A stretch of 64,000 nucleotides of DNA from Laetmonice hystrix (taxonomy: Eukaryota): contig OZ249436.1 in NCBI GenBank assembly GCA_965235115.1, positions 7,690,001 to 7,754,000 on the forward strand. The letters are read 5' to 3'. This document shows positions 10,301-57,041 of the stretch, in pieces. Under the pieces are notes generated by a model. That model searched no databases. It had not been told where the DNA came from and saw only the letters and a list, made by a program, of their open reading frames with translations. The translations under genes were made by a program, and so were the position numbers. Within the stretch, counting starts at the first letter, position 1. Each line of letters begins with the position of its first letter.

Positions 10301-11501
10301 CACGTATAAATGATGATTCAGATTTACAACTGGCACAGTGGGAGAGTTTACACGTGATCTGTGTCACGTATAAATGATGATTCAGATTTACAACTGGCAC
10401 AGTGGGAGAGTTTACACGTGATCTGTATCACGTATAAATGATGATTAGGACCACTCACTGCATCAACCTTTTCGGCCGTCGTCTCATCTGTAATGATGCA
10501 CTTGGTGTCTGACTTTACAATACGCTTGAGAATGTCTCCTTCCGTCAGCAAGGTTGTGCCAGGAATCAGGACCGTGCCTACCAGTAAATCAATCAGATTT
10601 ACAGTGCATGTCTTCACATAAATGACAGTGCGTACATTCCACCAAAGAAAAACAGATTTTTTTCTGTTACTGCTTATCGCTCTAATGTCCACCAACTGAC
10701 CTGTACGTATTGCAGCCAGGTTGACAAGCCACCACTGAGGGATTCTGGGTAGAAGGACTATGACCCTGTCCCCACGGGTAAGCCCACACGGTCCTGTCAT
10801 GATGTTGGCTACCCTGACAAATTTTATTATTAAGAAATCAGTGGTTCCTCAAGATTGAATGTTGCGCAAGTATAGATGCGTAGATTCATAGTAACAATGT
10901 GTATATACAATGTATGAATCTTCTTGAATTTATTTGTACACATTTCTGTAAAGTCAGAATTCTTTAAGCAGAACCTTTTAGTCTTTTCCACGAGATCGGC
11001 AAAGGTCCATTGTAGTTCATGTCCTGATTCGTCCATCCACCAAAACGCGGGTGTGTTTTTCTTTATATAAAATATATAAAAACAAATGTGCAGACAGTCC
11101 CGACGCCATCGCAAGAGAGTAGAAAATAAGGGCAAAAGCACTTTTACGAAAAGGCCAATTGCCTCCAATTGCAAAATCTGATGAAGCCTGTATTATTATA
11201 TCAAACAGAAAGCCTAATGCATGTCTAATTGGTTCACTCCAAGGAATCGGTACACTATGTAAGATAACAACTGGCTGACCTTGTCATACTGGGCCCATCG
11301 TTCCACAACATCGGTCACAAAGTTAAAGTAGTCAGGTACATCAATCTTAAATGTAGCCTTCTCAGCCTCATAATTATTGAAGCCGATGGCTGAGGGTGCG
11401 GTGGAGTATGGCGAGGCTACCGTTCTGAGAAACACATCATCAATTCTTCTGTTCAAAGTTCGAAGAAGAGGAATCCTCTTTGTTAGCAGTTTCCTAAACA
11501 T
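4323..11501 (-). CDS. ACSM3: Mitochondrial medium-chain acyl-CoA synthetase (ACSM3/ACSM4-like), 16 coding exons, 586 aa
   Basis: Exons (minus): 11501-11280, 11060-10975, 10813-10701, 10577-10459, 9302-9238, 9081-9027, 8774-8653, 8430-8274, 8050-7922, 7559-7485, 7164-7084, 6683-6582, 6059-5932, 5517-5418, 4669-4550, 4409-4323. They total 1761 nt and all splice phases are compatible. Motifs: Arg/Lys-rich presequence [30 protein letters not shown] (P-loop), [65 protein letters not shown]. The paralog number cannot be resolved; an alternative in-frame ATG lies at 11534. Confidence 0.93.
4911..5475. repeat. 58-82 bp (mostly 69 bp) tandem copies of the 3' end of ACSM exon 14 plus its splice donor, 8 copies
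   Basis: actaacctcgcctcgg (minus strand CCGAGGCGAG|GTTAGT) occurs at about 4938, 5020, 5089, 5147, 5205, 5274, 5343 and 5412. Confidence 0.95.
6002..6453. repeat. 80-bp tandem copies of the ACSM exon 13 splice acceptor plus exon start (4 extra copies and the real one)
   Basis: catcctaaacaaaatattcacttatcaat (minus strand ...TTTAG|GATGA) with the acceptor G at 6060, 6189, 6269, 6349 and 6429. Confidence 0.95.
7276..7436. mobile_element. Short hAT-like MITE with G/C homopolymer interior
   Basis: Imperfect TIRs cagtagcgtacccggaa / ttctgggtacgccactg; no clean TSD. A related element lies at about 29465-29605. Confidence 0.55.
9378..10447. repeat. 64-bp minisatellite, about 17 copies, filling ACSM intron 4
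   Basis: Unit agtttacacgtgatctgtgtcacgtataaatgatgattcaggtttacaactggcacagtgggag; the array stops about 11 nt from the donor at 10458. Confidence 0.95.
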
Positions 11502-25375: not shown

Positions 25376-25807
25376 AATTTCCATTCACTACGAAGCATTA
25401 TAGAGCTTCCTGGTGATAGTTGGACACATTGTTAAATGACAACATCCACTCATGTTTGCAAACAAATATGTATCAATATATTATATTGATACTCCACCAA
25501 TCAATTTCTGTTCATTGACTGCACGTAGAGACGATGAAGAAGCCGTTGTCCATTACTAATTGCTGTAAATGACGTTACTGTATAAAATAAAATAAAAAAG
25601 AAATGGCAATACTGTATGTTTTAACAAAATAATTTTTGGCCAAATATGGGATTCGTTTAGAAATTTAGAGTCATGCATGAGTAAAAAGAAATGTTTGATT
25701 TTTACCCCATGAATGTGTAGCCAGTTTTAGAATCATTATGTACTTGATGACACACGTACACAGAATATCTCGAGAACAATCTGTGCTCATAATTCCTGCA
25801 AACATAT

Positions 25808-26022
25808 TCTCAAAGTTTCCCTTGGATTTAAGTTTCCTTGACTTTGACACAACTCTTGATTTCTCAGAGTTTCCCTTGGATTCAAGTTTCCTTGACTTTG
25901 ACACAACTCTTGATTTCTCAAAGTTTCCCGTGGATTCAAGTTTCCTTGACTTTGACACAACTCTTGATTTCTCAAAGATTCCCTTGGATTCAAGTTTCCT
26001 TGACTTTGACACAACTCTTGAT
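25808..26022. repeat. 54-bp tandem repeat, 4 copies, spanning the MICAL-like stop codon
   Basis: Unit ttctcaaagtttcccttggattcaagtttccttgactttgacacaactcttgat; the rightmost copy encodes [10 protein letters not shown] with TGA at 25992-25990. Confidence 0.92.
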
Positions 26023-29000
26023 GCCAACACGACCCTTCGACTTCCTCTTCTCCTCTTTCTTCTTGTCCTTGCTTGTTTTTCTCTTTGGACTTTTTACAAT
26101 GTTGTTCTTGGAAAGCACATCTTCATTTTTACCGCAGAAACCTGTCAACGAATATGGGGAGACTTATTGGGTGGAACATGGTACGGCAAACAGCATTGTA
26201 GAGGCTCTGGTAAATAACATGATCATTATAGATTTAAATAAATCATGGCAACTTATTCTTTATAAAGTAGGTGACTTGTGACTTTTTAAAAATCTATTAC
26301 GGGTACCTTAAATTCGCCAATAGCTATTTTCGTTGTTCAATCGGCGTTGTGGATACTATTATATATATAAATTGTTAATGTGATTTAATATCTTCTTTAT
26401 ACTGTTATAGATTATCATGTTAGATCCAAGCATTTCCCCATTTCTACTTTCTAGAGACATTCTTCAATCCATCATCGTTTTTGCAATTTTATCTACGTTT
26501 TAGTACTGACAGGGTTTGCCGCAGGCCTGTTTTTTTCTAGCGGGGAGGGGGGACGCCCTTCCAAAAATCAGTTGCCCCAAAAAAGCTTTTATTTTTGTTT
26601 GAAAACCCCAACCCATAGATATAGCCTCCCCTGCAAAGTGTTTCAAGCCCCCCACCCCCCAACCCCCCAAAAAAGGGGGGGAGATCCTGCAGGAAACCCT
26701 GACTCTGATCCAGAGTAGTGATATTCTACATGGTCTACACTGTGATAACTCAATCACTAAGTACCCAGCAACCAGTTCATTGAGTAAGTATAGGCTCACT
26801 GATCCCGAGTAGTGATATTCTACATGGTCTACACTGTGATAACTCAATCACTAAGCACCCAGCAACTAGTTCATTGAGTAAGTATAGGCTCACTGATCCA
26901 GAGTAGTGATATTCTACATGGTCTACACTGTAATAACTCAATCACTAAGTACCCAGCAACTAGTTCATTGAGTAAGTATAGGCTCACTGATCCAGAGTAG
27001 TGACATTCTATATGGTCTACACTGTGATAACTCAATCACTAAGTACCCAGCAACCAGTTCATTGAGTAAGTATGGCTCACTGATCCCGAGTAGTGATAGT
27101 CTACATGGTCTACACTGTGATAACTCAATCACTTAGTTCCCAGCAACCAGTTCATTGAGTAAGTATGGCTCACTGATCCCGAGTAGTGATATTCTACATG
27201 GTCTACACTGTGATAACTCAATCACTAAGTACCCAGCAACCAGTTCATTGAGTAAGTATAGGCTCACTGATCCAGAGTAGTGATATTCTATATGGTCTAC
27301 ACTGTGATAACTCAATCACTAAGTACCCAGCAACTAGTTCATTGAGTACCCCGGTAAGTATAGGCTCACTGATCCCGAGTAGTGATATTCTATATGGTCT
27401 ACACTGTGATAACTCAATCACTAAGTACCCACCAAACCAGTTCATTGAGTAAGTATAGGCTCACTGATCCAGAGTAGTGATATTCTACATGGTCTACACT
27501 GTAATAACTCAATCACTAAGTACCCAGCAACCAGTTCATTGAGTAAGTATAGGCTCACTGATCCCGAGTAGTGATATTCTACATGGTCTACACTGTGATA
27601 ACTCAATCACTAAGTACCCAGCAACCAGTTTATTGAGTAAGTATAGGCTTTCATATCTGATACTGAAGTTATCAAAACGGATTATTGTGTTCACGCAGTT
27701 CTAATACACCCTGTTTTCATTTTAAAATGTTATGAAAACTTTTTTTAATTCCTCAAAAAAACACATTCATGAGCGTAATATTAAGATCTTTCTACTCTTT
27801 CATGACTAGAGCAAGGGAAACAAAATTTCGATGAGTAACAGATAAATATAGGCCTACTGGGATTTTCCCCCCAACACCGCTGTGTCTTGTTATCTGTTGA
27901 TGTTAAGATTGCACGAAGCACCACACTACACAAGCTGAATGCCTACAAATTGCACAAGAGTCTCCAAAGTGGTAATAAAGACTTGATTTGATGATGTAGG
28001 TGTTGCTACTGTCTTGCCTGAGTAACGACATTACTGCAGCAACAACTGCTACCTCTACGCAAACGCTAAATGTCATATTCTATCTCCCTTCCTCACCCAT
28101 TTTCTGATTATGACAGCTGATTTTTCTGAAACTCTCTTTATTTAACTGATTAAAACTAAAGTTTCTTACAAAGATTATCTTCAGGCAAGGATATTTTGTA
28201 TGTGAATACAGAGCATGCAGACAAATTAAACAAACTTCTTTCCACACTGGAGAAAACTCGATATTCTATAACTAAGAAATCCACTGGTATCTTTGGTAAA
28301 TTGTCATGCAGTGAAAACCTGTCAGTGGCATTAATTCAACAGCAAGATAGCAGACTAGATGATGGTCAGACTGTGGAACAATGTCTAAAATTACCTTTGG
28401 TCTCATTTCCCCCCCCCCCCCCCCCCCCCGAACACCTTGAGTCCTACAGAGTTCAGTTCCCATATATGTGACCTTATAAATGATCTGACCATACCATACG
28501 TCTGTCAGCTTGCTGTAAAATTTAGTCTCTGCCTGTGGTGCCACTATTATCATGCATATCTCTAGTACTAGCAATGCATCTAATGTCTAAGGTGAGTGAG
28601 CTTATCATTATTGTACAAGGCTAATCAAAAGGTTCAGTGTTTACCATAATTATACACTGGAGGAAAATTAAAAAAAAACATGATCATCAAACTCAACATG
28701 TAACGCAGCATCCAAAAATCATTAAACACACTGAGAATAAAATAAAGGGATAATCAAACAACTGAGTAATCTAGGACTACAGCTAATATATATAAGGAAG
28801 GTAATATTTGAATGGGGAACTGTCGCTGTGATACAATCATTGCAAATTTGAAATTTTGACTCGATTCCACATTTTTCCCAACACTGAAGCCTTGTACTGC
28901 AGTGTACTAATTGTTGATACCTCTACACTGTATTAACATTGCCCACCGCTGGGAGCACCCTTACGATTTCAGCTTGGCCACCTAAAAACTGTACAAACCA

Positions 29001-29859
29001 TTCTTATGAAACTACATCAGAATTACTGCTAACGGCATTATAATACAAGGGTTCAGAGTGACAGAGAGGCTATTAGGTCGCCGTTAATAGGTCAGTCACG
29101 GTGATGTCAAATGTGTGCAGCCGGCACGGAGAGAAGGAACCCAAGCCATGAGGTCAAAACGGTACAAAAAGGTCAGACACATACTTTGGAATGTATACAC
29201 AGCAACAGTTCCACCATAAGCCGGTCAAGATCGGAGTCTTCCTGAAATAGTAGGGTGTCATACCTTTGGATGCCATCATCTCAGCTATCTCCTGGTCCTC
29301 TTCCAGGTACCTGTAGGGAGACAAGAACAGGGTTGCCATAGAAACCAAACTGTGTTTTATACTATATTTTCCTGTCTTGAAAAAGAAGCAAAACAGAAAT
29401 GTAAGTATTTATTTACCAGTATACATCTATTTATTTACGACCGAAAAAAAAATCTTATTTAAAGCAGAGGCAGATCCAGTAAGGGGGTGGTGACAATTTG
29501 CTTGGGGGGGGGGGGTTCAGCATGGTCAATTCTTACAGTTCTGTGGGGAAAAAAGAAAAATTGGTTACCGGGAGGGGGTTACACCAACCCCCTGGATCTG
29601 CCACTATTAAGGATAAGCTTGCATGTATTGCTAATGAAAATCAGAGGTCTCTTTAGCAAAAGACCTATTTCTATACAACTTAGTATTAGATGATTTTAGA
29701 ATATTTTGACCTACCTAATTCTGTCCTCCTCAATGGAGTCAACAATGTTGTTTCTAAGTGAGACAGTTTCGATCAGGTTCTTCAGCAATGCCTCTTCACG
29801 CACACGTTCAGATGATGTCTTCTCAGTATCTGGGAACAAAACCACATGACCAATCAAAC

Positions 29860-29892
<33 letters not shown>

Positions 29893-32800
29893 ACTTCAAC
29901 CAATCAAACTTCAAGACATGCCAGGCCCGGGGTTCTTGAAAGAGTTTGAGTAGGAATTTCGGACAAAAGAGAATACCTGGATCATTGAATACCAGGAGAA
30001 AATTTTTTTTTTCGGGTTTTTAAAATGAGATAAAATTGCAGGGAAGGAAAACATAGCCCCCCTCTCCCTTAATATAATATGGTCTGCCACTTACTGGCCA
30101 ATATGAACCGGGGATCAATTACTGACCTGGTTTTTCCATGAGACACCTGAGCTCATACTCGAGCTCCTCGTGCTGGTCCTCGAGCTCCTGCTGCCGCTGC
30201 CGGTACATGAGGTCCGTCTCCAGGCGTACAAGATCATTCTTCTGGTTGACCAACTCAAACCACTGTACCATCAACTCTGCCTCATCCATCGCCTCGTCTG
30301 ACTCTGGCAAACAGGAACAGCACAAACACAACTATAGTCTCAAAATTAGTTCTAACAAAAACAATTAAATGATACGATAAAACTAAAGCCTCCTTTATGA
30401 TGGACTCTTGGGTATGGAATTTTTAAGGCAGACTGTTGAAATAACTAGACAAATGACAAATTTGATCCAACATTTGCTGAACTAGGCCTACCACAATACT
30501 CGTTGGTTTCACTTAGTAGTATGGTAAGGCTTCTACTGACTTCCACAATAACTACCAGTATATAAACTGGCAGAGGTCATGAATAAATTAATTAATTTGA
30601 ACAATCAAGGATAGATTCGATTAAAAGAAGCATTATTAAGATATACATACATGGCCCAGTCTATACCTGGATGAATGAATGCTAGCAGCGAATCAAATGC
30701 CATATATACTGATAAAGCGCAAACAGTTCTCACAGGTAAGTTTGCTTGGCTAAGCAAGCTCTCCTCACATAACAATACCATGCAGAATTTCACAAGATAG
30801 AATGTCTCCCTCTATATAAAGGCCTTCACTATACACTAACTGCAGTAAGAACCCTTCAGCCTATATCCACTTTGTGGGGCAGAATTCTGTAAAACCTATA
30901 CCGGGAACGCGATTTCTAGCATTCTTGATGAAGACCTATACCGGGAACGCGATTTCTAGCATTCTTGATGAAGATGTACGGAATCAAACAAGACACTTGG
31001 GTGAATACATAGAATGCAGCATAGAGTGTGGACGAGGCATGAAATATAAACGTTACTCTCAGGTTAGTGTCACCTACTATAGGTGGGCGATTCTTAAAAT
31101 GGGCATCAATAAAGTAGGTGAAAGCTATGAGTGGTGCGTCGGGACAGGGCAGGTAAAACAGTCTGCAAGGTGTGTGCTGCTCTCAGCTTTTAATATATCA
31201 TTCCAATAAAACGTGCAAACAGTCTCTTACTCTTGACTTCACATAAACTCTGGCCTACAAAAGATGAACTAAGAGATTTAATTTAATATATTAAAAAGTA
31301 TTCATTTAAAGAATTTGAAAAGCATTCATTTAAAGAATTCGATCTCCACACATCACATGCAATAACGTGTCATACCTGTTTGCAACAGCGCATCACTGCA
31401 TCGAATTGTTACGACTAGATCTAAAACCAAATAATCTTTACAATAACCTATAAACTACCAACATGAAACGAAACAAACACTAACACTTCTTTACATTGGA
31501 CCAAACTAAACTACAACAGAAGGGAAGCAGAGTTGGGGAGAAGGCCTAGTTGTTGGTGAGTGTTCATGTGGAGGGCAACAAGAGGTGCTCAGCCTATTTC
31601 TGGTTTTTCACACGCCAGTCAGTGAGGTATGAATGAAGCAGTGAAGGCAGCATTATGAAATGATTACCTGGCTACGGCTAAGTCTGACTTTTTATAGCCA
31701 TCATACTGGCATCAACTGCAGACCATTCTCTCAACTCTCCAGGCTGATGCACACTTCTGTCTGTCTCCCAAATCCTCTGCAGCTGGTATTCCATACAAAG
31801 TGTGGCCTCTTTGGTCAGTCAAACTCCTGGACTGACTTTCAATTAGTTATTCACAGTACAGTGTACCTTCTTCAGCACTGACACTAAGACGGGCAATTCT
31901 ATGTATGGGTTGGAAGCCAAAAGGCCCTGGTAGACTGGGATGGTCTATAATGGTTTTCAGTACACGTGTTTTGTATCTTATTAGCTCATGTTGTTAGACT
32001 AGTAACCGAGGGTATATCATAACGAATTTGCAAACAGAATATACGTATTTCTTCAGGCATTACAATTTTCTGTTTCGGAGTAATGGGATAGATATGCCAA
32101 AGACAGATAATATTATGTTATGTAGCTGCCCACATTTGACGTGTGAAATTTCAAAACAGGCTGGCCATCTCTTGTCTATAATTTTTAATTCTAGTGGCAT
32201 GATGGAATTTGTATCGATCTTCATAAATCGGTCCGGGGGCATGCAATCAGGCAGCAGCTGGTGGGTCAGTGACGTGCTGCCACCTACTGCCTATAGTTTC
32301 TAAATCGGCCACCAGGTGGCAGCAAAGTAACTGAAGAGAAGACCAACGCAGAGAGTCACAGCTATAAGTATAGTTATGGTGTTGGGGGCTGACTCGGAGG
32401 TGCTTGGAGGAGGTGCTGGGTGAAAGGGTGACGATGAACGAGTCATACCACTTCGGATTTTCTCCTCCAGTACCCTGCCCTCCTTCTCCAGCTCCTGGAG
32501 GTTGGTGTCGAGGTCATCAAGCCTTTGGATGATGGTGATTTGAGAGATTCGGGCCTCGGCATTGACCTGGCAAAACAAAATTCAACTTACTGCTAACCTT
32601 TTCAAATGAAATATACATTCACAAACACAACGGCATGCTTAAAAACTGACATGTAATTGCAAATAGATGTTTCTACTTAGATGTAAAGTAGTAAAATTTT
32701 TGACATGTGACTGTCTATGTGATGTTAGACTCACTCGGCGTTTCGGTGGGCTGTCCTCACTTTGACTGGCTGGGACAGGAGGCAGCGGCCGGTTGGCCAT

Positions 32801-35800
32801 CTTGCCGGGACCGTCCGCAGGAAGAGCTCGTGGTGGTCGTGTTGGGGGACCGATCTCTGCATACTCTCTCTCCTTCTTCACGTTAAAACCACGACTCTCA
32901 AAGCTCGTATCTGGATTCACTGGCGTTTTTCTTGTCAAGGTCAGAGCAGGAGAATTCTTTGGCCGTGGAGGAGCAGGCGATTTCTTTCTCTTCTGGAGGT
33001 CTGAAAGCTCTTGGCTTCTCGGTGATAATTTACGGCCGCTGTCTGTAGCTATACTCGGGCCTGATGTCGGTCTGGCTGGTTTGGGGCCCGGTTGATTTGG
33101 ATTGGAATGTGCGTCAGTTTCATACATTGTTGCTCTGGTTGGTAGTGGACTTCTCAAAGGTTTTGGCGGAGGCATGGTACTGTGTGGCCTGGTGGCTGTA
33201 GTCTCTAAACGGTTGCTCCTGTCTCTTGGTGTAACCCGACCTCTGCTGGCAGAATCAATGTTTTTCACCTTGTCCATCGGTTTACTGGAGGCTGCAAGGC
33301 CTCCATACGAAGGACCACCCAGACGGTCCTGTGTTACTTTCGACATATTGGAAGGTTTATTGGGTACCTTTTCTGGGTCTGGATAGTTCCCTTTTCTGGC
33401 GGCCTGGCGTTTTTCAGCTTCGATCTGCCACTGAGGCCGGTCATCGACATCCATTGGAGTGGTTTCAGGAGACATAGTTTTTCTTGTACCAAACCTGTTA
33501 GCACCAGCCATAGTGCTGGAGACCCCATTAGAATGTATTTTTGGCCCTTCCACTTTGTTTTTACCAGGAAGGGTGCAGCTAGACCTAGGTTTGGGGACGG
33601 GTCGTACTCCCGGTGAAGTATTAGGCCGAGCTGGTTTTGTTAAATCACTAATATTTTTGGTGTTCGGCTCTTCCTTTTTGTTTGGCTTTATATACGCCTT
33701 TTCTGGATCCTTAAAGTTGCCAGCACGGGCTGCTTGACGTTTTTCTGCCTCGACCATCCACTCGGGTTTATTTTCTTGAGGAGGCGGTAAGATCGTGCCT
33801 TTCTTCCTCATTTGAACAGTCGTTCCTGAACTTAACTTTGGGTCATATCTTTCAGCAACTGACACTTCTGGAGTAAAGGTTCCTTTAATAGTTTGTTTTT
33901 GCTCTTTTCTTTCACGTTCAGCCATGTTTAACTTGGCCACTGCTATGGAATCTTCAATATTAAAAGCGTTCATGTTATTTACAGGCTTGTCGAGTTCAAG
34001 TTCCACTTCTGTGGGTGAGACAGGCGTATCACCTTCAAGGCCATGGCTACTGGAATGGTAGCTTTTGGTGGTGGTTGACTTCCTAAAGGCAGCAAAAGAA
34101 GAGCTCAAGTGTGGCAGACCATCCGATTTCTCAGCCCTCAGTACTGAAGGGCCGCTGGGAGAGGTGACTGGCTCGGGTTTGTCCGTGAACATCGGGGTTG
34201 GGGTGTGTATACCTTTCTTTAAAATCGGCTTTGTCGGCTCGGCCACGTGCAGAGGTGAAGCCACGGGGGCGGGAGACGTTTCACGCGACTTCAGAATTGG
34301 TTTTGGCGAATCTCTTACAACATTGTCCGTTCTGGCAGTACCTTGTGACAAAGTCTTCGATTTCAATATTGACTTGGGTTCAGCGGTTGGCGATACCTGG
34401 GCTTCAACTCTTGGAGGAGTCTTGAGGATGGGTCGAGGAGTCATTTCCTCCGAGCTCAGCTCATCGCCGGAAGAACCCAGCAGGCTGTCTGCTGAGGACT
34501 TCCGTGTTTTCAAAATTGAACGGAATGGTTTGGTGTTGTCTTCACTTGTAATACTGTTGGTGTCAAACGCGTTCGTAGTGTCCTTGGTTTTTAGAATTGA
34601 CCTTGGCACAGCAGACGTTACTGGATCACCTAAGGTATCGTTGTTTGAAGCCAGATCAACTGACTTCAATATACTATGACTGGTCGATTTGTGGTCATCT
34701 TCTCCATCATCGTGGTGTTTCAGTATTGACCGCGGCGAAGTCTCTTGGCTGCTGGTACCAGACTCAGCATCTAAACTGCTCTTGAGAATTGACCTTAATG
34801 GCCTTCCATCGGAGGCCTCTGCTGTCGTTCTGACTGGTGTCATGGGTTCTTTGTGTTTTAATATTGGTTTGGGTCCATTTGAGATTGTGTCCCGGTTTGT
34901 ATCACTACCATCTGGACCAGACTTCAAGATAGACCGTGGACTTGTTTCGTTAGCCTTCGTGGCAATGAAGGGTTTCTGGGGTTCTACCTCGCTATCACTG
35001 CCTGCGGCTGCGGCGAATGGTGGCGGGGAGAAAGGGCCAACTTCTGAGGATCTCTTGAAGTCACTCCTCGTTCTGATGTTAGCTAAACTCCTCAACAAAC
35101 CTAACTTGATAGATGCGCCACCGCCATCATCCGGACTGAGGGGACTGGAAGGAGACGCTGATGTTCTACTACTAACAGTCTCTACGGAAGACTGACTCTC
35201 TGGTCTTGAAGTCTTGGGCTGAGAAGTCTGAGGCCTTGCCCGGTCCTCAGCCCCAAACCCGTGACCATTTCTAGATTCAACTGAACTTGGACTGGTAGGG
35301 GAAACCCAGGACCTTTGAGGGGGCTGGTTTACAGTATTACTAGCACACTCATCATTGTCAACATCCATTTTTTCCACAGGTGCTGAAGGAATGGTTCTTG
35401 TTTGGCTATCACCAGTAAAATGAGGAAAGAGTCCATGTGCGACAGGAGACAATGGAGCTGAGGCTGACGCCCCAGGGGACGGAGGCGTGTAGGTAGGGGA
35501 GGAGTCTCTAAGGTTAAACCTCGGTCTGGGGGAAGGGGTGTCAGTAGTAGATGTGGGTGACCACGGTTGTGGGGATCGAGGTTTGTCGGGTTCCCGTGGC
35601 GACCAGAGTGGTGGGGAGACTGGTTGCTGCTGGGCGGCAGACTCGGGTAGAGTTTCTCGTGCTGCAGCAGCTGGTGATGTGATGGTTGGTGATGATTGGG
35701 TGTTGACCCGTGCTGTTCGAGGCGAGAGGGGCCGTGGGGTGCTAATTCCTGACGACGACGGTGATGAAGATGATGAAGATGGTTGAACAGTTGACGGGGC

Positions 35801-38800
35801 TCTCTTTTCCTCTGCAATTTTGGTGTCCCACATTTTTGCCATTGATTTTGCCGACGTTACGGATCCATTAGATGTGGAGCCATTTGATGTGGTTGTGTTA
35901 GTGTTGTAGGATGGGGCTGTGTTCTCCTTGCCCACCTCATCCATACTACGAGCTGACCTGAACGCCCGCGACGTCGACTTCTGTGACTCTCTAAAACAAT
36001 GGCGATGGTAGAGTTTTCCTCCCTCCAGGTGGCGCTCCATCAGGTAGACCTTTTTGTGACACAGGTGGCATGTATCACCAAGAGAGCCCTTCGTTACCAA
36101 TCCTCCACCACCTACAAGGGCCCTCTTCGGCTGGCTCGGACCCTGCAATGTAAAGGAGTCATTTTTTTGCGTCATCGTTTGCGTTTTGAGAGATGAATGG
36201 ATGCCAGCTGACGGCTTGCCCTTGAAACCTTCGTTCCTTACCAGACTGCATGGATACGCCAAGCTAAATCTTAGCAACGAAAGATATCCCCCTTCTCGCA
36301 GATGGAATGCATGGTCAAATTATAACGGACTGCAGGAACAGATTTGTTCGTTTCCTACAAGTTTTTTTTCTATAAATCCGAGCCGAGCCCGCATAAATAA
36401 TACAGGGAAGCATTAGTGCACGGCCTTACAGCTCTGTGACTACAAAATGTGAACTTTTTTCGTGTAAATCATAGGAATGAGGAAGATTTCTTTAAACATT
36501 GTCCAAATTTCAATTTCTCAAACTCTCTTGAATCTTTTCTCATAAAATTACAAATTTCACTGCGATAAGACACTTATTACTATCTGCATCGCCTCACCAC
36601 ATTATGTATCTTAAAGTGCTTGTCTGTCAGAAAATAAAACTTTCAACAAATGACTAGAGTAGTCTTCATGCATGCAGTTTCTCTATGCATCTAACCCTTA
36701 TCTTGCCAGTCAATACAGATGTACTATAAAAAAGCAGAGAAAAATCTTTTACTTTCAAATTCTTAACACGATTTTGTTACCAAGAAGTTGTTTGTTTTCC
36801 AACAATTTACACGATAAGTACAGAATAACACAAGACAACAATAAGACATGCATCTACTTGGTGACAAGCATCAAACTACTGGAAATGAGCCAAACTGGGT
36901 GAGAGTTGTGAAAATAACTGAGGATGATAGTCTCAGTCATATAGCTTTTGTATGAGACATAGCACATGATGCAGCATGATATGTTGTAGAGTTGTTCTTA
37001 TAGCGACACTACATCCACAGTAAGTTCATAATAGTAACTGAGGTCCACTGCAAATAAAAGAGAAGTTAAACTTTTTGTTGTGATGTCCTCCTTGGGTGTT
37101 GTATTCCCTATCTGGAGATGAAAATAAAATCAGTTGTGATGGTGTTCTACAGCCACTTCGGTCTGCATGCTGTGTATTGTGAAATTATAGTGTCACATAC
37201 CACAGAGAAAGATAGCAGTAGTCGTAATATAGAGCTTCTTTATGTGTCACTGTGTGTCCAAACTAACACTATGTAACCCCAGAGAAATCTCAAAGTCCTA
37301 TGCATGTGTGCATTTACTTTTAATACTGATCAAAGAAAAATCTCTTTTAGTGATGACCTACCATGCAGTGGCACTAAACTCGTATTATATGTTAATAATA
37401 AGAATCAAGGTTTGATATCTGGGGGCACTGTCCATTAAATCTGAATGCCTTATCCTGTTCATGTTCCAAAATTTCAAGGTGTAATTAAGACTTAAAGCGC
37501 CAATCACAAAAACAATGTTTGGGAGTCTACCCTGAGCACTAAGACCGTGCCGCCCTGATATATCACTTCAGAATACAAACCTCCGGGAATGGTTCCCTTC
37601 ATAACATCAGCACATTTAATAATGACGTTAACAAGTGGAGCAAGAGGTACATGTCTGGGATACAGCTTCACGCTATATCCCCGGGACTTTTCGTTAAGAT
37701 TTCATGGTTTAAGTCATGTGTTAACTTCAACATCCGAACTTTCTGCTGTCATGTTAGGATAAAGATAAAGATATAGCTTTTGGCATTGTTTTTATGAAAA
37801 TATGTCTTTTTTACTTGAATCTCCCCATTCTTGGCACGCTCCTGTATGTTTTGTATGATGTATCTGAATATATCTGCATCATTAAACAAAACGAAATCTG
37901 ATAACAATTGAAACGGATTCTAACCAATTGAAGTTTAAGTCAGAAAGCACCTAAAGTACTCACAACGCCGCCTATCAACACTCCATTTACGGTCAGATTA
38001 AAATCGCTATCTTTTAGAAGCACATGGGTGCTTTTATTGAAAGACACAGCAATGCACACATCGTGCCAATCATTCAAAGACGGCAAGCAATTCATACGCA
38101 GGCTTTGATGAGGGGAAATCAAGTAACACAATGTGCAGCCAAAGTAGGAATTTACCCAGCTCTACAAAACCTGCTGCCTATGCGGGAAATTAGAATTGGT
38201 GTCTGAGTAACAAATGATTTCGTCATCAGAATCTCAAACCAAAACATGTTCAGCCTTTTTTTTCCTATAGTAAAGTAGGTAGTGTATCTATAGATCTACA
38301 TTTTAAGAGACAGAAAAAAAACTATGGACATCCACCGAAAAACCTACATTTCAAGTCGCGTCTGTATCATCTGCAACATTTGCCTTAGCTACATGATGCC
38401 TCTCCAGTATAAGGTGTCCTCAAAGTACAAATTTTAATACGTCCAAAGTAAGGGCACACAAGGCCCTCGTATGATGAGTTAAACCCCGAGCCGAACTGGT
38501 AGGACAAATAATTCCGTCTCCCCCAAAAGATAATGAATGTGTATGTTGAAACTCAGTATGCTGTAACTTTTTCAAACCAGGTTCAGGCCACCAACAGAGT
38601 TTCATTTAAATCCTGTTTTAAACTGTTGCAATACCCCGTAATTTCAATGTGCCAAAATTGATATTGGTTGGCCGTATATAACAGTTCTACAGCAAACCAA
38701 GATCATAGTACAAGAACAGAACCCAAATCCAAGCATTTAACAGAGTACTCGGTAGGAAACTCAGGAAACTCGGCATACAGAAGTATGTCGGGTATAGGGG

Positions 38801-41800
38801 TCAACACACTGCCAGAGAATATAGAAGGGCAACATAAAAAGGTTCTACTTCCCGTACTGCATGCCATTTCTTTGAAAAGGGCGTTTGCAGTAGCCAGCTT
38901 CAATAAACCCAAAACGTATTGGAAGTGGTAACAAAATATATTGAATGATGAGAAGATAGTTTGAAAGTGATAATCCCTAATTCTGCTGGACACCCTTGCT
39001 ATGAATGAGTCGAACATTCTGATTCCCCTCACCAAAGACCCAGCCCTTGCTAGTGGCTCCACCTAGTACCACCTCCACTCACCATCCTTCCTACAGTTCC
39101 AGCTGCTGCTACATACGGTAACAATGAGGCGTTCAATGAGTGCACATTTTCAATGGGCAGAGCTATAACCCTGTTACAGCATGTAGGCCGGACATTCCGA
39201 CAGCTAGAAGAAATTTTCTGGTTAATGAACAACAGATGTGACCACAACACTTGTGTTTCAGTCTCTACACGTAACATTAACATCACCAGGACGTAGGCGT
39301 TCGAGTACCTGTCACTCGGACGTAAGCGTTCCAGTCCCTGGTCTGGACGACAAGAATCAACTTACAACTTTGGCAATACCAGTCCTCAAAAATACTTGTT
39401 TCCCTAATTATAATTCTTCCCTCTCTCCCCCCAAAATAAATAAATTTAATCTTTCCCACCATTACTTACAGTACACATACGAGTAAGTAGGCCTAATGAT
39501 CGGGCCATTTTGAATGTAAAGTACTTACAGCACAATCTAACCCCGAAAGTTCCCTGCGGAGCTGACATATATGCGTCTATCCCCCAAATATCTTCACGAG
39601 GAGTATACTATAACTACTCTAAGTTTTTCAAAATAAATGCATTTAGAGCCACGTCGACTTTGAGTTCATCTTCTGACCATAGCAGTTACCAAGGGTCTAG
39701 AAGAAAACCCCACGGGTTATACCCCCACCCTCCTCCTTCACTCCAGTTTACAACCCAAAGATTCAGTTATCAGCTCGCACCAGTCACTGATAAACATTGA
39801 CACTAACCTGAAACTGTTTGTGAATCGTGTCAGGTGTGATACGTTTCGCCTCTGGTGGTGGACTAGGTGGTGATTCAATCTGGGGACGTTTGATGGCTGT
39901 CCTCTTCTCGCCAGCTCCACCTGCTGTAACCAATTTAACACACAATTGTAATCATAATGTAGCAGTAGTACTCAATCTGCTCCATCGGAGGATTTTTCTA
40001 TAACCTCTTCCATTTTCCTATCAAATCTTGTGAGTCACTAACAGGAATCCGTTACTTTCAGTATGATAGTGGATCGCATTACGAGTATAAGGAAGGGTTA
40101 CTGATTGCAAAATAATTAATAACAGTATTTCATGAGATCTCGCATTGACACTGGCAAAGAGTGCCAAATTAAACCCCAAGTTTTATTCTTTTTTCCTTGG
40201 CAAGTTTTGCTACCTAATCTCTAATCCATGTGAGTAATTTCTACTCCATAGGTGAAGAGTCGTCAGTTAAATCTAAAAGATTCTGTCAGGGATATCATAT
40301 ATACATTTGGATATAATACTTCTCAGAGCATCTCGCATCATCCAGAAATATAACATTCGTACGACATGTTTGTACTTAATGACACGAGAAGAATCATTCT
40401 ACATCAGTGTACTAATTTCTGTGGAATGCAGAAAATGTTCTTTGTTACTGCATACATAAATTTAAAAAAAAAATCTAATGACTCAGCCTCCTGACGAAGA
40501 CACATACTCATGTCTCATTCCTCTCCAGCGTTATCATTGTAAAAAGTTATTTTAAGTGGTTTGACATTTCAAGTAAGTTTATGTCGACTAAAGGAGATCC
40601 GAGTCGTTTTCACCCTAGACAAAGGTCTGGTTTGTCCCAATGGGCCTAGAGAATGGCGTGGGTACTAATGTGTTGTGAGTATATCGTTATCTTATTGTTG
40701 GGAACACTCCCTTCACAAGACAGTAATCATTAATGTCAGTATTGACTGATAGTCAACGTTCAATGATTAAACCACTCATCTACAGCCTTCCGGGAGCAAC
40801 CTAATAATATCTATGGCACTACTCGGGCTCACTCCAATATCTTCAATGTTGAGTAGTGACATCACTGATCAAACCACTCATCTACAGCCATCCGGGAGCA
40901 ACCTAATAATATCTATGGCACTACTCAGGCTCACTCCAATATCTTCAATGTTGAATAGTGACATCACTAATCAAACCACTCATCTACAGCCTTCCAGGAG
41001 CAACCTAATAATATCTATGGCACCATTTGGGCTCACTCTAATGTCTTCAATGTTGAGTAGTGACATCACTGATCAAACCACTCATCTACAGCCTTCCAGG
41101 AGCAACCTAATAATATCTATGGCACTACTCGGGCTCACTCCAATGTCTTCAATGTTGAGTAGTGACATCACTGATCAAACCACTCATCTACAGCCTTCCG
41201 GGAGCAACCTAATAATATCTATGGCACTACTCGGGCTCACTCCAATGTCTTCAATGTTGAGTAGTGACATCACTGATCAAACCACTCATCTACAGCCATC
41301 CGGGAGCAATCTAATAATATCTATGGCACTACTCGGGCTCACTCCAATGTCTTCAATGTTGAGCAGTGACAGAAAGTTACATATGGCAGGAAACCACTTT
41401 ACAATACTGCTATAGTTAATGATCTTCACCCTCTCATTGGGAACTCCTTCCTTCAAACTAGCATGGCTTTGGAGCAGCTCCTCAAGGGATTGCTGTCCTT
41501 TAAAAAACCAGCACCATCAGCCAGCCACAGCAGACCTAACCGTGACATCTGAAGTAGGGACAGCGGCAGGGTCATACCTCGTGACACATCCGCCAAGGTA
41601 ATATCTCCACCAAATCTGGTCAGGATGTCCTAAGAATATAATATCACTATTCTACTTCGGTACAAGGTCTGCCTCCCCCCCCCCCCTAAAAAAAAACAAA
41701 CTTATCCCTAACCATGGCCCTGTGCCTAACCCGAACCCTCATTTGATGGGAATGTTAAAATGGTGGACTAACACACATCTCAGACACGTTTCACCTCAGC

Positions 41801-44800
41801 CAGCCATAGACGGGGTCTGTGACCTTGAAACATCCCTGTGTTAGGACCAGGAGTCCTCTCCTGGGTCATTCCATGTGAAATCACCCAATTTTCAGACAAA
41901 TCCCATAGTGATAGTCTTGGATTTGCTTCAAATTTTTTTGACATGTTGCCTGTGGTGCCAAATGAAAACATGCCAAGTTTACCTCATTTTCATTTATAGT
42001 TTTTTTGTTATAGGGGGTCAAAAAAGTGGGCGTGGCTCCTTTTATCGCGACAAAAATGCTGCCGACAGATTTACTCCCATCTTTAACAAACCATAGCTCA
42101 GGAGCTATCAAGGATATCAACTTGATTTTTTCAACATAGATCCTTCATCATGTACTCTCTTGTTGGCAGGTGTCAGATTAAAATTTAATCAAGTAGGAGT
42201 CAAGCAATTATCTGCTACATTTAAGCATTTTTCTGACGAAAATGAAAAATTGTCACATTTCAGATCAGCTTTCCCCCATACCTCATAGGATGAATTGAGT
42301 TTAGTTGTTTCTAAATGATACTACAACTAAAGGGCTTCCTACAGTAACAAATGCAGTTACTTAAGATCAGTAGTTTTTTGGCAAGAATAGCAGGTACCGG
42401 GTCTCAGCAGGAAAAAAACCCTATTTGGGCCCCTTTTTTGAAGATGTGGGTATCCTTCGATTTTGATAATAATTATATCATCAGAAAGCCCTTGATGTGT
42501 ACCATCAACCTACCTATTTTCATTGTTAAACTAGGACCCTTTCATCTTGAAAAAAAATATTGATTTTTAAAAATAATGACACATTTCGGACGTCATCATG
42601 CCCACCATGATCTTTCAAAGATAATACTGAAAACACATTACTATATGCCTATTTTCAGTGTGCAACTAGTACTCTTTCATTTTGAAAAAAAAAATTACTG
42701 TATTTAAAAATTTTGACATTTCGTAGGTCAGGTCTGATAGTGATACCCTGTAAAGAAAATTCCAATGCACTGCTAGATCAGCACTATTGTAGTTCATTCA
42801 TATTTCACTAGGTGGCAGGCCAATCAACAGAAACTGGCAAAAAAGTGGGAGCACATTCTAATTACAGGGTTGCCAGACAGATTCCAGATTGAAAATAGGC
42901 ATGGTGACAGTACACATCAAGGGAGCACCTTCTGATGATATAATTATTATCAAAATAATTTGCATAGGAATGTGTTTTCAGTATTATCTTTTGAAGATCA
43001 TGGTGGGCATGATGACGTTCGAAATGTGTCAATATTTTTAAAAATCAATATTTTTTTTCAAGATGAAAGGGTGCTAGTTTAACAATGAAAATAGGTAGGT
43101 TGATGGTACACATCAAGGGCTTTCTGATGATATAATTATTATCAAAATCGAAGGATACCCACATCTTCAAAAAAGGGGCCCAAATAGGGGTTTTTTCCTG
43201 CTGAGACCTGGTACCTGCTATTCTTGCCAAAAAACTACTGATCTTAAGTAACTGCATTTGTTACTGTAGGAAGCCCTTTAGTTGTACTATCATTTAAAAA
43301 CAACTAAACTCAATTCATCCTATGAGGTATGGGTGAAAAGCTGATCTGAAATGTGACGATTTTTCATTTTCGTCAGAAAAATGCTTAAATGTAGCAGATA
43401 ATTGCTTGACTCCTACTTGATTAAATTTTAATCTGACACCTGCCAACAAGAGAGTACATGATGAAGGATCTATGTTGAAAAAATCAAGTTGATATCTTTG
43501 ATAGTTCCTAAGCTATGGTTTGTTAAAGATGGGAGTAAATCTGTTGGCAGCATTTTTGTCGCGATAAAAGGAGCCACGCCCACTTTTTTGACCCCCTATT
43601 AAAAAAAAAACTATGAATGATAATGAGGTAAAACTTGGCATATTTTCATTTGGCACCGCAGGCAACATGTCAAAAAAATTTGAAGCAAATCTGAGACTAT
43701 CACTATGGGAGCCCTGGGTGATTTCACATGGAATGACCCTCCTGTCATCATCACGAACTGCAGACTTAAGCCGCTTTCACATGCATACGGTGTGCGGCGT
43801 GCGGCATGCGGCGTGCGTTTTTGTTAATAATGTAGCCAATGTAAATCGCCGCACGCCGCAAACCGGAGACATGTGAACGGTTATATCTATTTTCAGTTGT
43901 TCCATTTTTGCAAAAACGCACGCCGCACACCGCACACCGCACACCGTATGCATGTGAAAGCGGCTTAAGAGCTGTAGTATCGTGCGGGCCCCCTACATTT
44001 ACTAAGATTGGCGTCTTGCCTGATCTAGGATTTGCCTCCACTTCAATGCAGCTATGTGACAAGCTGGCGAGGTTAGGTTCCTGGTTGTCAATTTCAGAGA
44101 GACTCCGAAAACACTTATATTATATTAATGGTCTGGTACTGAGGTATTAGAATTTAGGCATTAATATTGTCACTAAGGCTCACACACACCAGGGTATCGA
44201 TTGTGATGCCAATGGTAACGCCTTAGTAAATTCCTGTACAAAGACCTCTTTTTTCACTTCATGAGTCACATCAAAGTATGGGCTGCTTTATGAACTCATC
44301 ATTTTAGCTATACATAAAATGGGCATTTCCATGAGTGAAAATAACAATCATCTAATTGGAATGACTATGGCCCTTAGCGCTCATTGACCTTTCCATGGGT
44401 GACTACTAGCAACACTATAGTGTTTCCAGTTGCCCGTGGCAACATGACGACCTGTGTGAGAGTACGATCCTGCCGGATACAAATGGCCCCCTGTCACGGA
44501 CCCCTACATAACACCGACTTGACATATTGAACTACTTACCTGGGGTCATGGAGCGGAACTTGTTATAGTACTGAGACACATACGTCACAATGCAGAGCTT
44601 GTCCGGCACTGCCATGGCAACCATGTCCTCAGCCTCCAGCAGGTCGGGAATGTCCAGCTCCTCTTTGGCGACCTCGAATGCCTGCGAGCAGAATCACCAC
44701 ATCTGATGATGAAAAAAATAGAACCAAGGCAACAACACCTTGGGCTACTGAGTGTAAGATTAAATATATATCGTACTGTCTCCGGCCTACGACAGATATA

Positions 44801-47800
44801 TGGCCTGAAGGTCATATTAAACACTCGGCTTCCTTCTGAGGCTGCACGGGGTGGGTGGGTGAGGGGTGGGTGGGGCTGGGGTGGGTCATTGTCAATAGGG
44901 TCGATAATCGGGGGAAGAGGTACCTACGGCAGGGTTTCTTGCAGGCCCTTTTGTGGGGGAGACTCCCCTACTATTCAGCTACTCCCCCAAAAAAATTTCT
45001 CGGGAGAAATATTTTGCATTACTCTCTCCCCCGCCCCCAACTCGCACCCCCCCCCCCCAAGTCGAAAATCTCCAGGAAACCCTGCATGGTCTACTTCCAT
45101 CAGAAACTTCAGAATGGAGAAAATGAAATACATTTTGAGGGGCAGTTCATATACTATGATGTGTTGGTGGTGGGTGAGGTGCGCATAGGTACACAGTGGA
45201 AGACGAGCCAGCTTTTTTACATGATGAGATGCATGGGCAGAGCCAGGAATTTTGGAGGTGGGGGGGGGTTACCTGCTACAAGGGGGGGGGGGGGGAGGAA
45301 CCTACTCCTGCCTCTGGAAACGTTTGAATCTATCAGTAATCGTCCAATTTTAAGTTAGTCTGCAGAAAGAACGTGGGGAGGTTAGAGGGGGGGGGGGCGC
45401 CTACGAGAAGGCAAACAAGTAGGTTAGCTGTACATTATTGAGTCCTCAAACAACTAAGTCAGTTTTATGAGGTGGGAAGTCAAACAAACAGGTTCGCTGT
45501 ATGACGGAAGGGAAAGTAAACAAGTAGGTCATTTATGTGGTGTGACCGACCAGCGATTATTTATGTGGTGTGACCGACCAGCCATTATAGAGTTGTACCG
45601 ATGCTGGGGAGATATCGTTGTAATCAGGCAGGATGATATATGGTCTGTTGCCTGCAGATTTATTACTGGATTGGTAGAGAATGATACGGATGTCGATTGC
45701 CACTATATTATTGTATGACCCATTATGATACTGTGGAGGATTATGGCTACTGCCATTCAATTACCACACTGACCAAGGGTACGCCAACCTATAACAATAC
45801 GGGTATGTGATATCATACACTGATCACCTGACCCTGCAGATAACCGGAATCATATGTTTTCTTACATCACGGTAATTCTGACTGACATTCCGCAGCTAAA
45901 TGTCATTCCAGCTTGCCAGGTTCAATAATCGTTGATGATCTTCTAAATGATCTCAAATGGCGGAACAGTTTTAAAACTTTCATCATCAGATAGTAATAAT
46001 GTAATAAAACAAACGGTCGTCTTAAACAGAACCATTTCATTTGAATCGCCTGGGACAGCAACTCCATAGATTTTAATGTCTTTTTACTCAACAAACCCCC
46101 CTTAATGTTTTATCTGCAGCTGCAAAGTTTCTCTTGCCCGACACAGAACACTAAATAATGCTACAGTAGGCCTTAATTCACTTACCAGTTTATTATTTTC
46201 GTAGACATTCTCTTTGGACAGGGAATCATAATCTCTGGAAAAAAAAATTATGTCTCATTAATACGATAACATAAAACAAATACGACCAGTGTCAGTGTTA
46301 GTGGTCTAATAAATTATACGCCTGCCTGATAATGCCCCTTCTGGGGTCACATGTTATAAACTGTGGTGCTACAGTAAGTTCTAAGTCGTATGACGCACAC
46401 ATTCTCAATCACAGGCAATTATTTAACAGCCTTATCAACCACCGTATCAAGGAAAATAATCATGATACTAAAAGCGGGGAAAAACAGCAAACAAGAAGAC
46501 AATAAAGAAATATCAATTCATAGTAATAAATCAGGATGAAAGAACTGGAAGTACCCCCGGTAATACTTGGGGGTACTTGCAATGAGTGAGTTGTGTAAGG
46601 ACCGTACATGAGGTTACATGTATTCTCATGTGCCAAGTACTTGCAGTGAGTGAGTTGTGTAAGGACCGTACATGTGGTTACATGTATTCTCATATGCCAA
46701 GTACTTGCAGTGAGTGAGTTGTGTAAGGACCGTACATGTGGTTATATGTATTCTCGTGTGCCAGTACTTGCAGTGAGTGAGTTGTGTAAGGACCGTACAT
46801 GTGGTTACATGTATTCTCGTGTGCCAGTACTTGCAGTGAGTGAGTTGTATAAGGACCGTACATGTGGTTACATGTATTCTCATGTGTAAGTATAACCTGA
46901 TTGGTTGATTGTCAGGTAATTGAACGTCTATTATGGGCGGTCCTGCTTAATGGCCCTGTGAACGACTGGTATTTCCATGTTAATGACAGCTCACAATCCA
47001 ATGACGGTCATTCGATCACAGTTGGGGCACGTTATGTAATGTGGCCCCATGGCAAGCTTTAACATCAACACGGAAACAAATAAAAATACCCGGACAATCA
47101 CACTGAACAATTCCTGCCCTAGGAAATGGAATTTTTCTTTTTCTTATGCAATTATATACTGGCCACAAAACATGTACGGGTAATCATCTCTTTTTTTCGT
47201 TTTCTTTAGGATTTAGTTTATCAAACCAGGATTAACAGAAGTGTTACTCCAAAAAGGTTTGTTTGTCGCGGCTGGTTAACAAAATGACCAGTTCTCATCC
47301 ATAATGCATGATGTACAAGAAAGAGTTAACCAATGCACTCCCTAGAATCCTGGTAGCAGTCTAATCAAGGAAAGATCTGATTATCCCATATCAGATCACC
47401 ACGACAAACAAAACATTGAGCCACAATTTCTACCATGCCAATCCTGCCTTTCACAATGCGGGACGACAGGAGACCTGAAGGATATACAACTACCGACCCT
47501 TTCTATGGATTAATCAGACCTTTCATAAAGTTGCAATGACTTGGCGTGTACTTTGACCCGTCTCTGCGAGGAAGTTGATGATAGCGCAGCTCCTGCCTCC
47601 GTTCTTCCAATATGTTCACCTTTCCGGCAGTACACATGACGTATACACGACCACCCCACCTTGACAGTTATTACATGTTCCCTTTACATTTATTGGCAGG
47701 CAGAAATAAAAATGGCAAGAGTCTCGCAGAGTGTGAGCAGTACAGAGTAAAGAACCTGGAGCTAATTCCAAGATGTTTTTATCGAGACTGCAGTCAGAAG

Positions 47801-56800: not shown

Positions 56801-57041
56801 GGTCAGGACGGTATCGGTGTATCACTTACATGAGGTCAGGACGGTATCGGTGTATCACTTACATGAGGTCAGGACGGTATCGGTGTATCACTTACATGAG
56901 GTCAGGACGGTATCGGTGTATCATGGCGCAGAATGCGAGCCCACTCTTCCAGGACGACGTCATGTTGGTGACGTTGACGTCCCGGTAACCCTCCACCTGC
57001 GCCTTGCACCATTGTTGTAACGCTTTCACCTTATGAGCCAT
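25990..57041 (-). CDS. MICALL1: MICAL-like protein (MICALL1/2 family): CH domain, half-LIM, Pro/Ser-rich linker, bMERB coiled coil; 10 coding exons, about 1488 aa
   Basis: Exons (minus): 57041-56896 ([13 protein letters not shown]...[24 protein letters not shown]), 46234-46186 ([16 protein letters not shown]), 44681-44540 ([42 protein letters not shown]), 39920-39808, 36142-32735 (3408 nt), 32566-32449, 30303-30127 ([22 protein letters not shown]...[13 protein letters not shown]), 29829-29715, 29310-29264, 26141-25990. They total 4467 nt in frame. CH + LIM + bMERB without a monooxygenase domain defines MICAL-like. An acceptor at 57084 implies an upstream non-coding exon. Confidence 0.9.
26510..26701. 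mobile_element. Short hAT-like MITE; second family member at 44930-45084
   Basis: TIRs cagggtttgccgcagg / cctgcaggaaaccctg; the related copy has cagggtttcttgcagg / tccaggaaaccctg. Confidence 0.55.
26705..27650. repeat. About 94-bp minisatellite, 10 copies, in the last MICAL-like intron
   Basis: Unit ctgatccagagtagtgatattctacatggtctacactgtgataactcaatcactaagtacccagcaaccagttcattgagtaagtataggctca. Confidence 0.95.
29154..29263 (-). CDS. Candidate alternative C-terminus of MICAL-like by intron read-through (Trp/Cys-cluster tail)
   Basis: Frame stays open past donor G|GTATGA at 29263: [36 protein letters not shown]. Confidence 0.4.
32300..32448 (-). CDS. Candidate alternative C-terminus of MICAL-like by intron read-through (tail-anchor transmembrane helix)
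   Basis: Frame stays open past donor G|GTATGA at 32448: [49 protein letters not shown]. Confidence 0.5.
40770..41370. repeat. 102-bp minisatellite, about 6 copies
   Basis: Unit aaccactcatctacagccttccgggagcaacctaataatatctatggcactactcgggctcactccaat...gacatcactgatca; it explains the repetitive ORF at 40813-41415. Confidence 0.95.
41863..43739. mobile_element. Non-autonomous DNA transposon with about 775-bp inverted arms, GGG...CCC termini and 4-bp TSD TCCT (Sola2-like signature)
   Basis: tcct|gggtcattccatgtgaaatcaccca ... tgggtgatttcacatggaatgaccc|tcct; arms 41863-42639 and 42969-43739 are near-identical inverted copies (mirror ORFs 42351-42563 + and 43045-43257 -). Confidence 0.9.
43770..43964. 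mobile_element. Palindromic MITE flanked by TTAA, Harbinger-like termini
   Basis: ttaa|gccgctttcacatgcatacggtgtgcgg ... ccgcacaccgtatgcatgtgaaagcggc|ttaa. The superfamily is uncertain because the TSD reading is ambiguous. Confidence 0.85.
46573..46886. repeat. 63-64 bp minisatellite, 5 copies
   Basis: Unit gtacttgcagtgagtgagttgtgtaaggaccgtacatgtggttacatgtattctcgtgtgcca. Confidence 0.95.
50017..50806. repeat. 71-74 bp minisatellite, 11 copies
   Basis: Unit ctggtcaagaatacacgacgtgccatacgatgatacagggagcttggggcccacacatgaagcaagggtaa. Confidence 0.95.
52715..52952. repeat. GC-rich degenerate tandem repeat
   Basis: Variable-length units built on ccgtcccaccggccgcccgcc; source of several overlapping Pro/Arg/Gly-rich ORFs. 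Confidence 0.85.
53644..53893. mobile_element. Tc1/mariner-type MITE with TA TSD
   Basis: ta|cagtgatctggaaaaaccta ... taggtttttcccgatcactg|ta. Confidence 0.8.
55125..55400 (+). mobile_element. Nin/Deu-domain SINE remnant
   Basis: catagaaccctgcttttccaattttcgaaaagagtagggg...gggtttctttcc resembles the conserved Nin/Deu SINE central domain (recognised from memory, not searched). Confidence 0.4.
56263..56922. repeat. 33-bp minisatellite made of the end of MICAL-like coding exon 1 plus its splice donor; 20 donor copies
   Basis: Unit tcacttacatgaggtcaggacggtatcggtgta, which reads ...CCTGACCTCAT|GTAAGTG on the minus strand. Donors recur every 33 nt from 56895 to 56268; the last one is GTGAGT. Confidence 0.96.

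Follow-up and report, generated by a model that had tools for sequence, protein, structure and literature searches.

A candidate tail-anchored isoform of a MICAL-like protein encoded by read-through into an intron in Laetmonice hystrix

Proteins with a bMERB domain reach membranes via a CaaX anchor, via lipids or via Rab proteins, whose binding in addition relieves their auto-inhibition, as far as the accessible parts of the literature searched report. A MICAL-like gene on the minus strand of contig OZ249436.1 from Laetmonice hystrix raises the question whether such a protein may also be made as an integral membrane protein, i.e. whether skipping of a single 5' splice site yields an isoform that ends in a membrane anchor. 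We analysed the surrounding stretch of 64,000 nt (assembly GCA_965235115.1, positions 7,690,001 to 7,754,000, here called the window; all positions refer to it) and consider it rather probable that the gene has a second, tail-anchored and lineage-restricted isoform that arises from intron read-through in the manner of the TC48 form of PTPN2.

By its predicted domain order the gene is MICAL-like, with an N-terminal CH domain, a C-terminal bMERB domain and no monooxygenase domain in the frame of the start Met; the absence of the FAD monooxygenase from the N-terminus is described as a trait of the MICAL-like family in the available text of PMC3305314. The exons coding for CH, the LIM-like region and bMERB show 56-94% identity to P0009 from Paralvinella palmiformis and P0010 from Capitella teleta (tblastn of the window), both of which are annelid and full-length relatives. 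The start Met at 57041 is aligned to residue 1 of both proteins (tblastn with residues 1-49 as query), and in-frame stops lie upstream of the first coding exon. Pfam recognizes CH on the first coding exon (E 1.8e-11) and on the third CH exon (E 2.5e-6), and bMERB on exons A and B of the spliced product, the joints being seen in RNA run X4. The spliced X4 contig has a loose end that matches the microexon and, behind it, the last exon. In the resulting gene model (Table 1) the spliced product has 1492 aa, 167 of which follow exon A, and the read-through product has 1374 aa.

Several features of the locus stand beside this model. The Pfam LIM match in the window comprises only positions 1-28 of 58 and is below the cut-off (E 0.059), P0009 and P0010 are without LIM match, and the window (about 35975-36070, minus strand), P0009 (177-215) and P0010 all appear to have kept no more of LIM than the first zinc finger. 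The spliced protein has eleven short [SP]ILK motifs, which cluster in the part encoded by the long exon (about 34200-34950, minus strand), and many are found in P0009 and P0010. A conserved, Trp-containing motif of 26-27 residues occurs twice in the disordered region (33769-33689 and 33445-33368, minus strand) and matches one copy in P0010 by ~60%. The canonical stop is located in a ~60-nt tandem repeat (about 25790-26000, minus strand), across which another frame stays open. A neighbouring gene for an AMP-binding enzyme is indicated by an exon at 10351-10848 (minus strand; Pfam PF00501, E 3.4e-6, below the cut-off).

Table 1. Features of the MICAL-like locus in window coordinates
Feature	Position	Strand	Basis
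First coding exon, with the start Met and the first (N-terminal) half of CH	56896..57041	-	tblastn, Pfam CH, boundaries
Second CH exon	46186..46234	-	tblastn; sole frame-keeping GT-AG combination of 4
Third CH exon	44540..44681	-	tblastn, Pfam CH, boundaries
Linker exon	39808..39920	-	sequence; frame kept
Long exon: first LIM zinc finger only, then Ser/Pro-rich region	32735..36142	-	tblastn, sub-cut-off Pfam LIM; X4 contigs cover parts
Exon A: putative bMERB helix 1, common to both isoforms	32449..32566	-	Pfam bMERB 2-29/134, MICAL1 alignment, AF2 helix
Weak 5' splice site GTG/GTATGA, used in the canonical transcript	32443..32448	-	consensus score; X4 joint 30303/32449
Ser/Pro/Thr-rich spacer, about 24 residues	32378..32448	-	translation; coil in AF2 model
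Predicted transmembrane helix, 21 uncharged residues, mean KD 2.19	32315..32377	-	translation; AF2 helix 61-85
Uncharged end WWPI and stop TAG	32300..32314	-	translation; deduced X4 contig straddles 32310/32311
Proximal candidate poly(A) signal ATTAAA	32184..32189	-	sequence
Intron stretch in X4 contig, candidate 3' UTR of the read-through transcript	31455..31824		contig match
Distal poly(A) signal candidates (ATTAAA): 31287 and 31282 in tandem, and 31194	31189..31287	-	sequence
Exon B: bMERB core, canonical isoform only	30127..30303	-	Pfam bMERB 32-87/134, E 8.8e-19; spliced in X4
Exon C: remainder of bMERB, canonical only	29715..29829	-	X4 contig, tblastn
Exon D, canonical only	29264..29310	-	X4 contig, frame
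12-nt microexon between exon D and last exon, canonical only	28645..28656	-	loose end of spliced X4 contig
Last coding exon, canonical: Lys-rich end, stop ending at 25990	25990..26141	-	translation

Exon A (118 nt) ends in phase 1 at the GT donor 32448. Past this donor 49 further codons, beginning with the split Gly codon, can be read before a TAG at 32302-32300 closes the frame, and translation confirmed all elements that the first-pass annotation had described for it, i.e. a Ser/Pro spacer, an uncharged hydrophobic stretch and a Pro-Ile end directly before the stop. The best 19-residue Kyte-Doolittle (KD) window of the tail reaches 2.36 and the last 30 residues are without any charge. A single-sequence AF2 model of the read-through end (mean pLDDT 72.8) contains a helix at residues 3-39, a coil and a second helix at 61-85. 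The earlier suggestion that this is the layout of a tail-anchored protein is supported by these predictions, with one hydrophobic stretch of 21 residues, helical in the model and located 4 residues from the C-terminus. Scored against the donor consensus of nine positions, donor 32448 has 5/9 matches, the lowest value among the gene's 8 donors, shared with the microexon donor; donors in 7 of the 23 related loci are equally weak (5/9 or less). The donor of exon D, 29263 (minus strand), has the same GTATGA start and is followed by a 36-codon read-through that is rich in Cys and aromatic residues (KD 0.91, GC 0.48) and has too little hydrophobicity for a helix.

That read-through costs the protein most of its bMERB domain, as had also been proposed, was borne out by the Pfam matches, which leave CH intact and only positions 2-29 of 134 of bMERB, all covered by exon A, and by a weak alignment (E about 3) of exon A to residues 16-43 of the MICAL1 bMERB construct. 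As the Mical-1 construct from residue 960 onward is described as being without helix 1 (PMC5026484, accessible text), exon A would represent bMERB helix 1. According to the same source, Rab site 1 is formed by helix 1 and half of helix 2, and site 2 by the rest of helix 2 and helix 3 (PMC5026484). Both Rab sites thus need helix 2, and since the read-through form keeps helix 1 only, neither site would be present in it. Judged by its predicted domain content, the read-through product is no bMERB Rab effector, helices 2 and 3 being gone. Membrane localisation of MICAL-L1 is reported to depend on the C-terminal coiled coil (PMC3667729), and in EHBP1 helix 2 carries most of the contacts to CH (PMC7442826). 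Closed forms have been reported for MICAL-L1 and MICAL-L2; with isolated domains they were undetected in PMC7442826, as far as its accessible text goes.

The weak donor 32448 is probably skipped in part of the transcripts, which would then be polyadenylated within the intron, an end that would avoid nonsense-mediated decay. The 1374-aa product would be composed of CH, half of LIM, the long Ser/Pro scaffold, bMERB helix 1, a flexible spacer of 24 residues, a 21-residue helix and an uncharged end of 4 residues. Its insertion would be post-translational and follow the tail-anchor route, the ER/secretory system being the most likely target, with the whole scaffold in the cytosol. We propose this target because the helix is hydrophobic and the tail lacks positive charge, and ER targeting is favoured by a hydrophobic helix whose tail carries little charge (PMC5450235, accessible text; mammalian rules, carried over by inference). 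Without helices 2 and 3 the protein would neither bind Rabs nor fold back on its CH/LIM end, and the result would be a scaffold that is independent of Rabs, always bound to the membrane and probably always open.

Four sequencing runs match the stretch, none of them recorded as RNA; all come from one sample and one study, which may be the source of the window itself, and their contigs carry no strand. Run X4 is spliced RNA with three GT-AG joints, including 30303/32449, and this joint shows that the canonical isoform is expressed. Between 32050 and 32600 a fraction of 0.36 of the 55 sampled words (~20) is present in X4 vs 9.3 predicted from exon A alone (P=1.7e-4), which is best fitted by ~130 extra bases. 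Moreover, after eleven of the 12 contigs have been accounted for, the bins 32064-32310 and 32311-32557 still have 459 and about 394 depth-bases left over, respectively, pointing to one further contig across 32310/32311 that is deduced and has no listed sequence. It is at least 99% alike and shorter than ~183 nt, occupies, depending on its length, anything from about 32268-32347 up to about 32214-32393 and overlies the last part of the helix together with the stop. By word count and depth sums we deduce that X4 contains tail sequence. Among the X4 contigs listed, none bridges donor 32448. The depths in X4 (21.4 for the spliced contig, 27.3 as the sum of the exon A alleles, about 5-11 for the tail contig that was deduced, and 17.7 at 31455-31824) serve placement only and do not rank the isoforms.

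X4 cover is absent at about 30304-31454, at about 31825-32210 and from most of the neighbouring introns. This pattern fits a transcript end within the intron, yet it is no evidence for one, as parts of the long exon are equally uncovered, and unspliced pre-mRNA could be the source of the intron cover. The contig at 31455-31824 has no repeat within the window and no Rfam match. As the contigs are strandless and this one has no visible link to the tail, it and the tail DNA may also stem from another transcript located inside the intron, e.g. an antisense or noncoding RNA, which would render the MICAL-like read-through incidental. We regard this as very improbable, since 30300-32460 yields no Rfam family (0 matches at E<=1) and contains only short ORFs, and since a nested transcript would leave the tail of a relative, P0002 (see below), unexplained. 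The first-pass annotation had suggested the ATTAAA at 32184-32189 as poly(A) signal of the read-through transcript. The motif is present, but another one may be used: if 31455-31824 is a 3' UTR, the ATTAAA motifs at 31287/31282 or 31194, which lie just past it, would be better placed than the one at 32189.

The frequency of such tails was assessed by counting uncharged 19-residue stretches of a set KD after donor-like sites. With KD>=2.0 the introns of the gene give no case among 492 GT sites, the window gives 2 among 632 donor-like motifs, the related loci give 9 among 948 such motifs, and the rate in 40,000 Markov simulations is 0.28%; with KD>=2.3 the values are 0/492, 2/632, 1/948 and 0.095%, respectively. 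Helix and Ser/Pro spacer together are found at 0 of the 948 donor-like sites of the related loci. Such tails occur at 0.1-1% per donor-like site, i.e. they are rare at any one donor, and a sufficiently large scan should come across a few of them. Since a scan of many donors meets them by chance, the sequence alone is no proof of function. The GC content of the tail is 0.52 vs 0.39 in the introns, three other introns of the gene start at 0.46-0.50, and the DNA coding for the helix is 40% T. An exon-like codon bias of the tail was considered as support and rejected, as GC explains the synonymous codon use (shuffled tail DNA, p=0.48).

Gene callers on raw contigs run through this donor, so that protein clusters from other species show how their intron begins. 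The layout of spacer plus helix is found in one of seven read-through protein clusters, P0002 (from a 4.4-Mb ENA contig), which on exon A alone is the closest relative (28/39 identical; 21-24/39 in the other six). Its read-through of the same donor comprises 93 codons, with a 44-residue Ser/Pro spacer and the helix FWVVLLVVLLVVVVVVVLHAL (KD 3.56), behind which 28 residues with a charge of -3 form the end. The tail of another cluster (P0004) is short, hydrophobic and charged and has no spacer (KD 1.88), and the remaining clusters are short or polar. Of 24 metagenome loci one is spliced (L004) and stays outside the read-through count; the other 23 (17 distinct at 95%, 15-24/39 identical) have an intron at the same position and read-throughs of 1-57 aa, none with spacer plus helix. 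P0009 and P0010 end in a normal bMERB.

Apart from their composition, the tails of the window and P0002 show no alignment (p=0.85 in a block shuffle; 0.075 and 0.29 for the helix end). The P0002 helix is Val-rich and of low complexity (1.84 bits vs 3.14 in the window helix), and in two related loci (L009, L010) a Val-coding repeat lies on the opposite strand immediately behind the same donor; for these two reasons the P0002 tail may be a microsatellite accident. The probability of one chance helix is 6-20% among about 22 lineages and 0.3-1% for a single named relative. Altogether, P0002 provides moderate support for a lineage-restricted feature, and, on comparative sequence grounds, the isoform looks lineage-restricted rather than ancestral to annelids. 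Lack of transcripts together with lack of conservation had been named at the outset as grounds against the isoform; RNA contigs do cover part of the tail and P0002 has the layout, whereas conservation concerns the layout only and does not extend to the other six clusters or to any of the 23 loci.

Further searches around these relatives gave the following picture. A separate downstream transmembrane exon was seen in the introns of 2 of the 23 related loci (L002 and L012); the two are unlike each other, 13 of the 23 introns are partial, and the matches were judged to be chance. ESM Atlas matches were all under 0.9, and 14 stretches of viral contigs contained no relative. One of 44 candidates from prokaryote genomes (L025) is a bacterial look-alike with 12/39 identical residues and was left out of all counts. 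In a Logan contig (P0001) exon A directly follows the exon upstream of it, and the next donor is read through for 22 codons without helix, representing either partly spliced RNA or a genome without the small upstream intron.

Two other explanations bear on these data. The tail may be a chance open frame at an ordinary intron start, with RNA contigs that stem from precursor, genomic DNA or an unrelated transcript and with P0002 as a microsatellite coincidence. Events of 0.1-1% are often met across many donors, donor 29263 of the same gene also opens a frame of 36 codons at GC 0.48, related introns contain hydrophobic frames (L002 and L012 after acceptor-like sites, L015 after the donor), and none of the 23 loci has the layout. 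We nevertheless think this quite unlikely, as it requires two independent coincidences, namely spacer plus helix in P0002 (0/948 in the null) and RNA contigs both on the tail and deeper in the intron. Alternatively, the intron may sometimes be retained or polyadenylated and the unselected tail may act as a degron, so that the product is destroyed by BAG6 triage or the RNA is removed by nonsense-mediated decay, which would lower MICAL-like dosage and yield no membrane form. Tails derived from noncoding sequence are often hydrophobic and degraded via BAG6, as the available text of bioRxiv 10.1101/2022.07.20.500724 describes; the T content of the helix DNA, the lack of a codon signal beyond GC and the unconserved tail sequence agree with this, and the RNA cover of the intron is explained equally well. 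We hold a degron to be unlikely all the same, because the tail is ordered (polar spacer, 21-residue uncharged helix, aromatic end) at a GC of 0.52, unlike a U-rich random run, and because the closest relative P0002 repeats the same order.

Taken together, we favour the tail-anchored isoform, and would go one step further only tentatively: an annelid lineage may have evolved and kept a switch in splicing by which MICAL-like, a peripheral adaptor gated by Rabs, becomes a Rab-independent, constitutively open actin/membrane scaffold that is integral to the membrane, with the layout being under selection across species while the sequence drifts. If this holds, the splice-switch form would be the first transmembrane member of the MICAL/EHBP proteins in the literature searched. 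The tail-anchored isoform, if real, would uncouple location and activation from Rab control by trading both Rab sites for a transmembrane helix, would offer a ready test of a permanently anchored, open MICAL-like protein on actin and recycling tubules, and would provide a clean case in which a hydrophobic tail of intronic origin has turned into a genuine membrane anchor; bioRxiv 10.1101/2022.07.20.500724 has proposed such a route, as far as its accessible text shows. Its reach is limited in that the splicing mechanism is known and the isoform is apparently lineage-restricted. Full-text literature searches, including searches for intronic polyadenylation with tail anchors, gave no transmembrane or tail-anchored MICAL-like or EHBP isoform among the listed matches and the openings of their abstracts; within this literature the novelty is the transmembrane anchor in a MICAL-like protein, not the splicing mechanism, which is known from TC48.

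The spliced form resembles MICAL-L1, MICAL-L2/JRAB, P0009 and P0010, i.e. it has an N-terminal CH domain, no predicted monooxygenase, a long Pro/Ser region and a C-terminal bMERB. It differs from MICAL-like proteins in that only the first LIM zinc finger is recognisable and no NPF motif is present from the linker exon through the stop, and the read-through form differs in keeping bMERB helix 1 only and ending in a predicted transmembrane helix. EHBP1 and EHBP1L1 are CH scaffolds of the bMERB family whose location is set by a C-terminal CaaX lipid anchor, as it would be by the anchor proposed here (PMC5026484). Their prenyl group is placed behind an intact bMERB and Rab control is kept according to the accessible text, whereas here the helix would replace the Rab sites. 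The noncoding tails triaged by BAG6 likewise provide an intron-derived hydrophobic C-terminus that enters the tail-anchor pathway (bioRxiv 10.1101/2022.07.20.500724). In the available text these tails are mostly degraded and show no ordered layout; the tail described here has a spacer and a helix of full length, and a relative may carry its counterpart. The closest precedent for the splicing is PTPN2, where in TC48 the penultimate exon is extended into the intron, resulting in a 34-residue end with 19 hydrophobic residues and in ER localisation (PMC10475599, accessible text). TC48 vs TC45 follows the same splicing logic and has the same anchor outcome as proposed for the MICAL-like gene, although the proteins are unrelated. 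In TC48 the exchange concerns 6 residues and leaves the catalytic domain in place, whereas here 167 residues and both Rab sites would be replaced, altering both recruitment and regulation of the scaffold.
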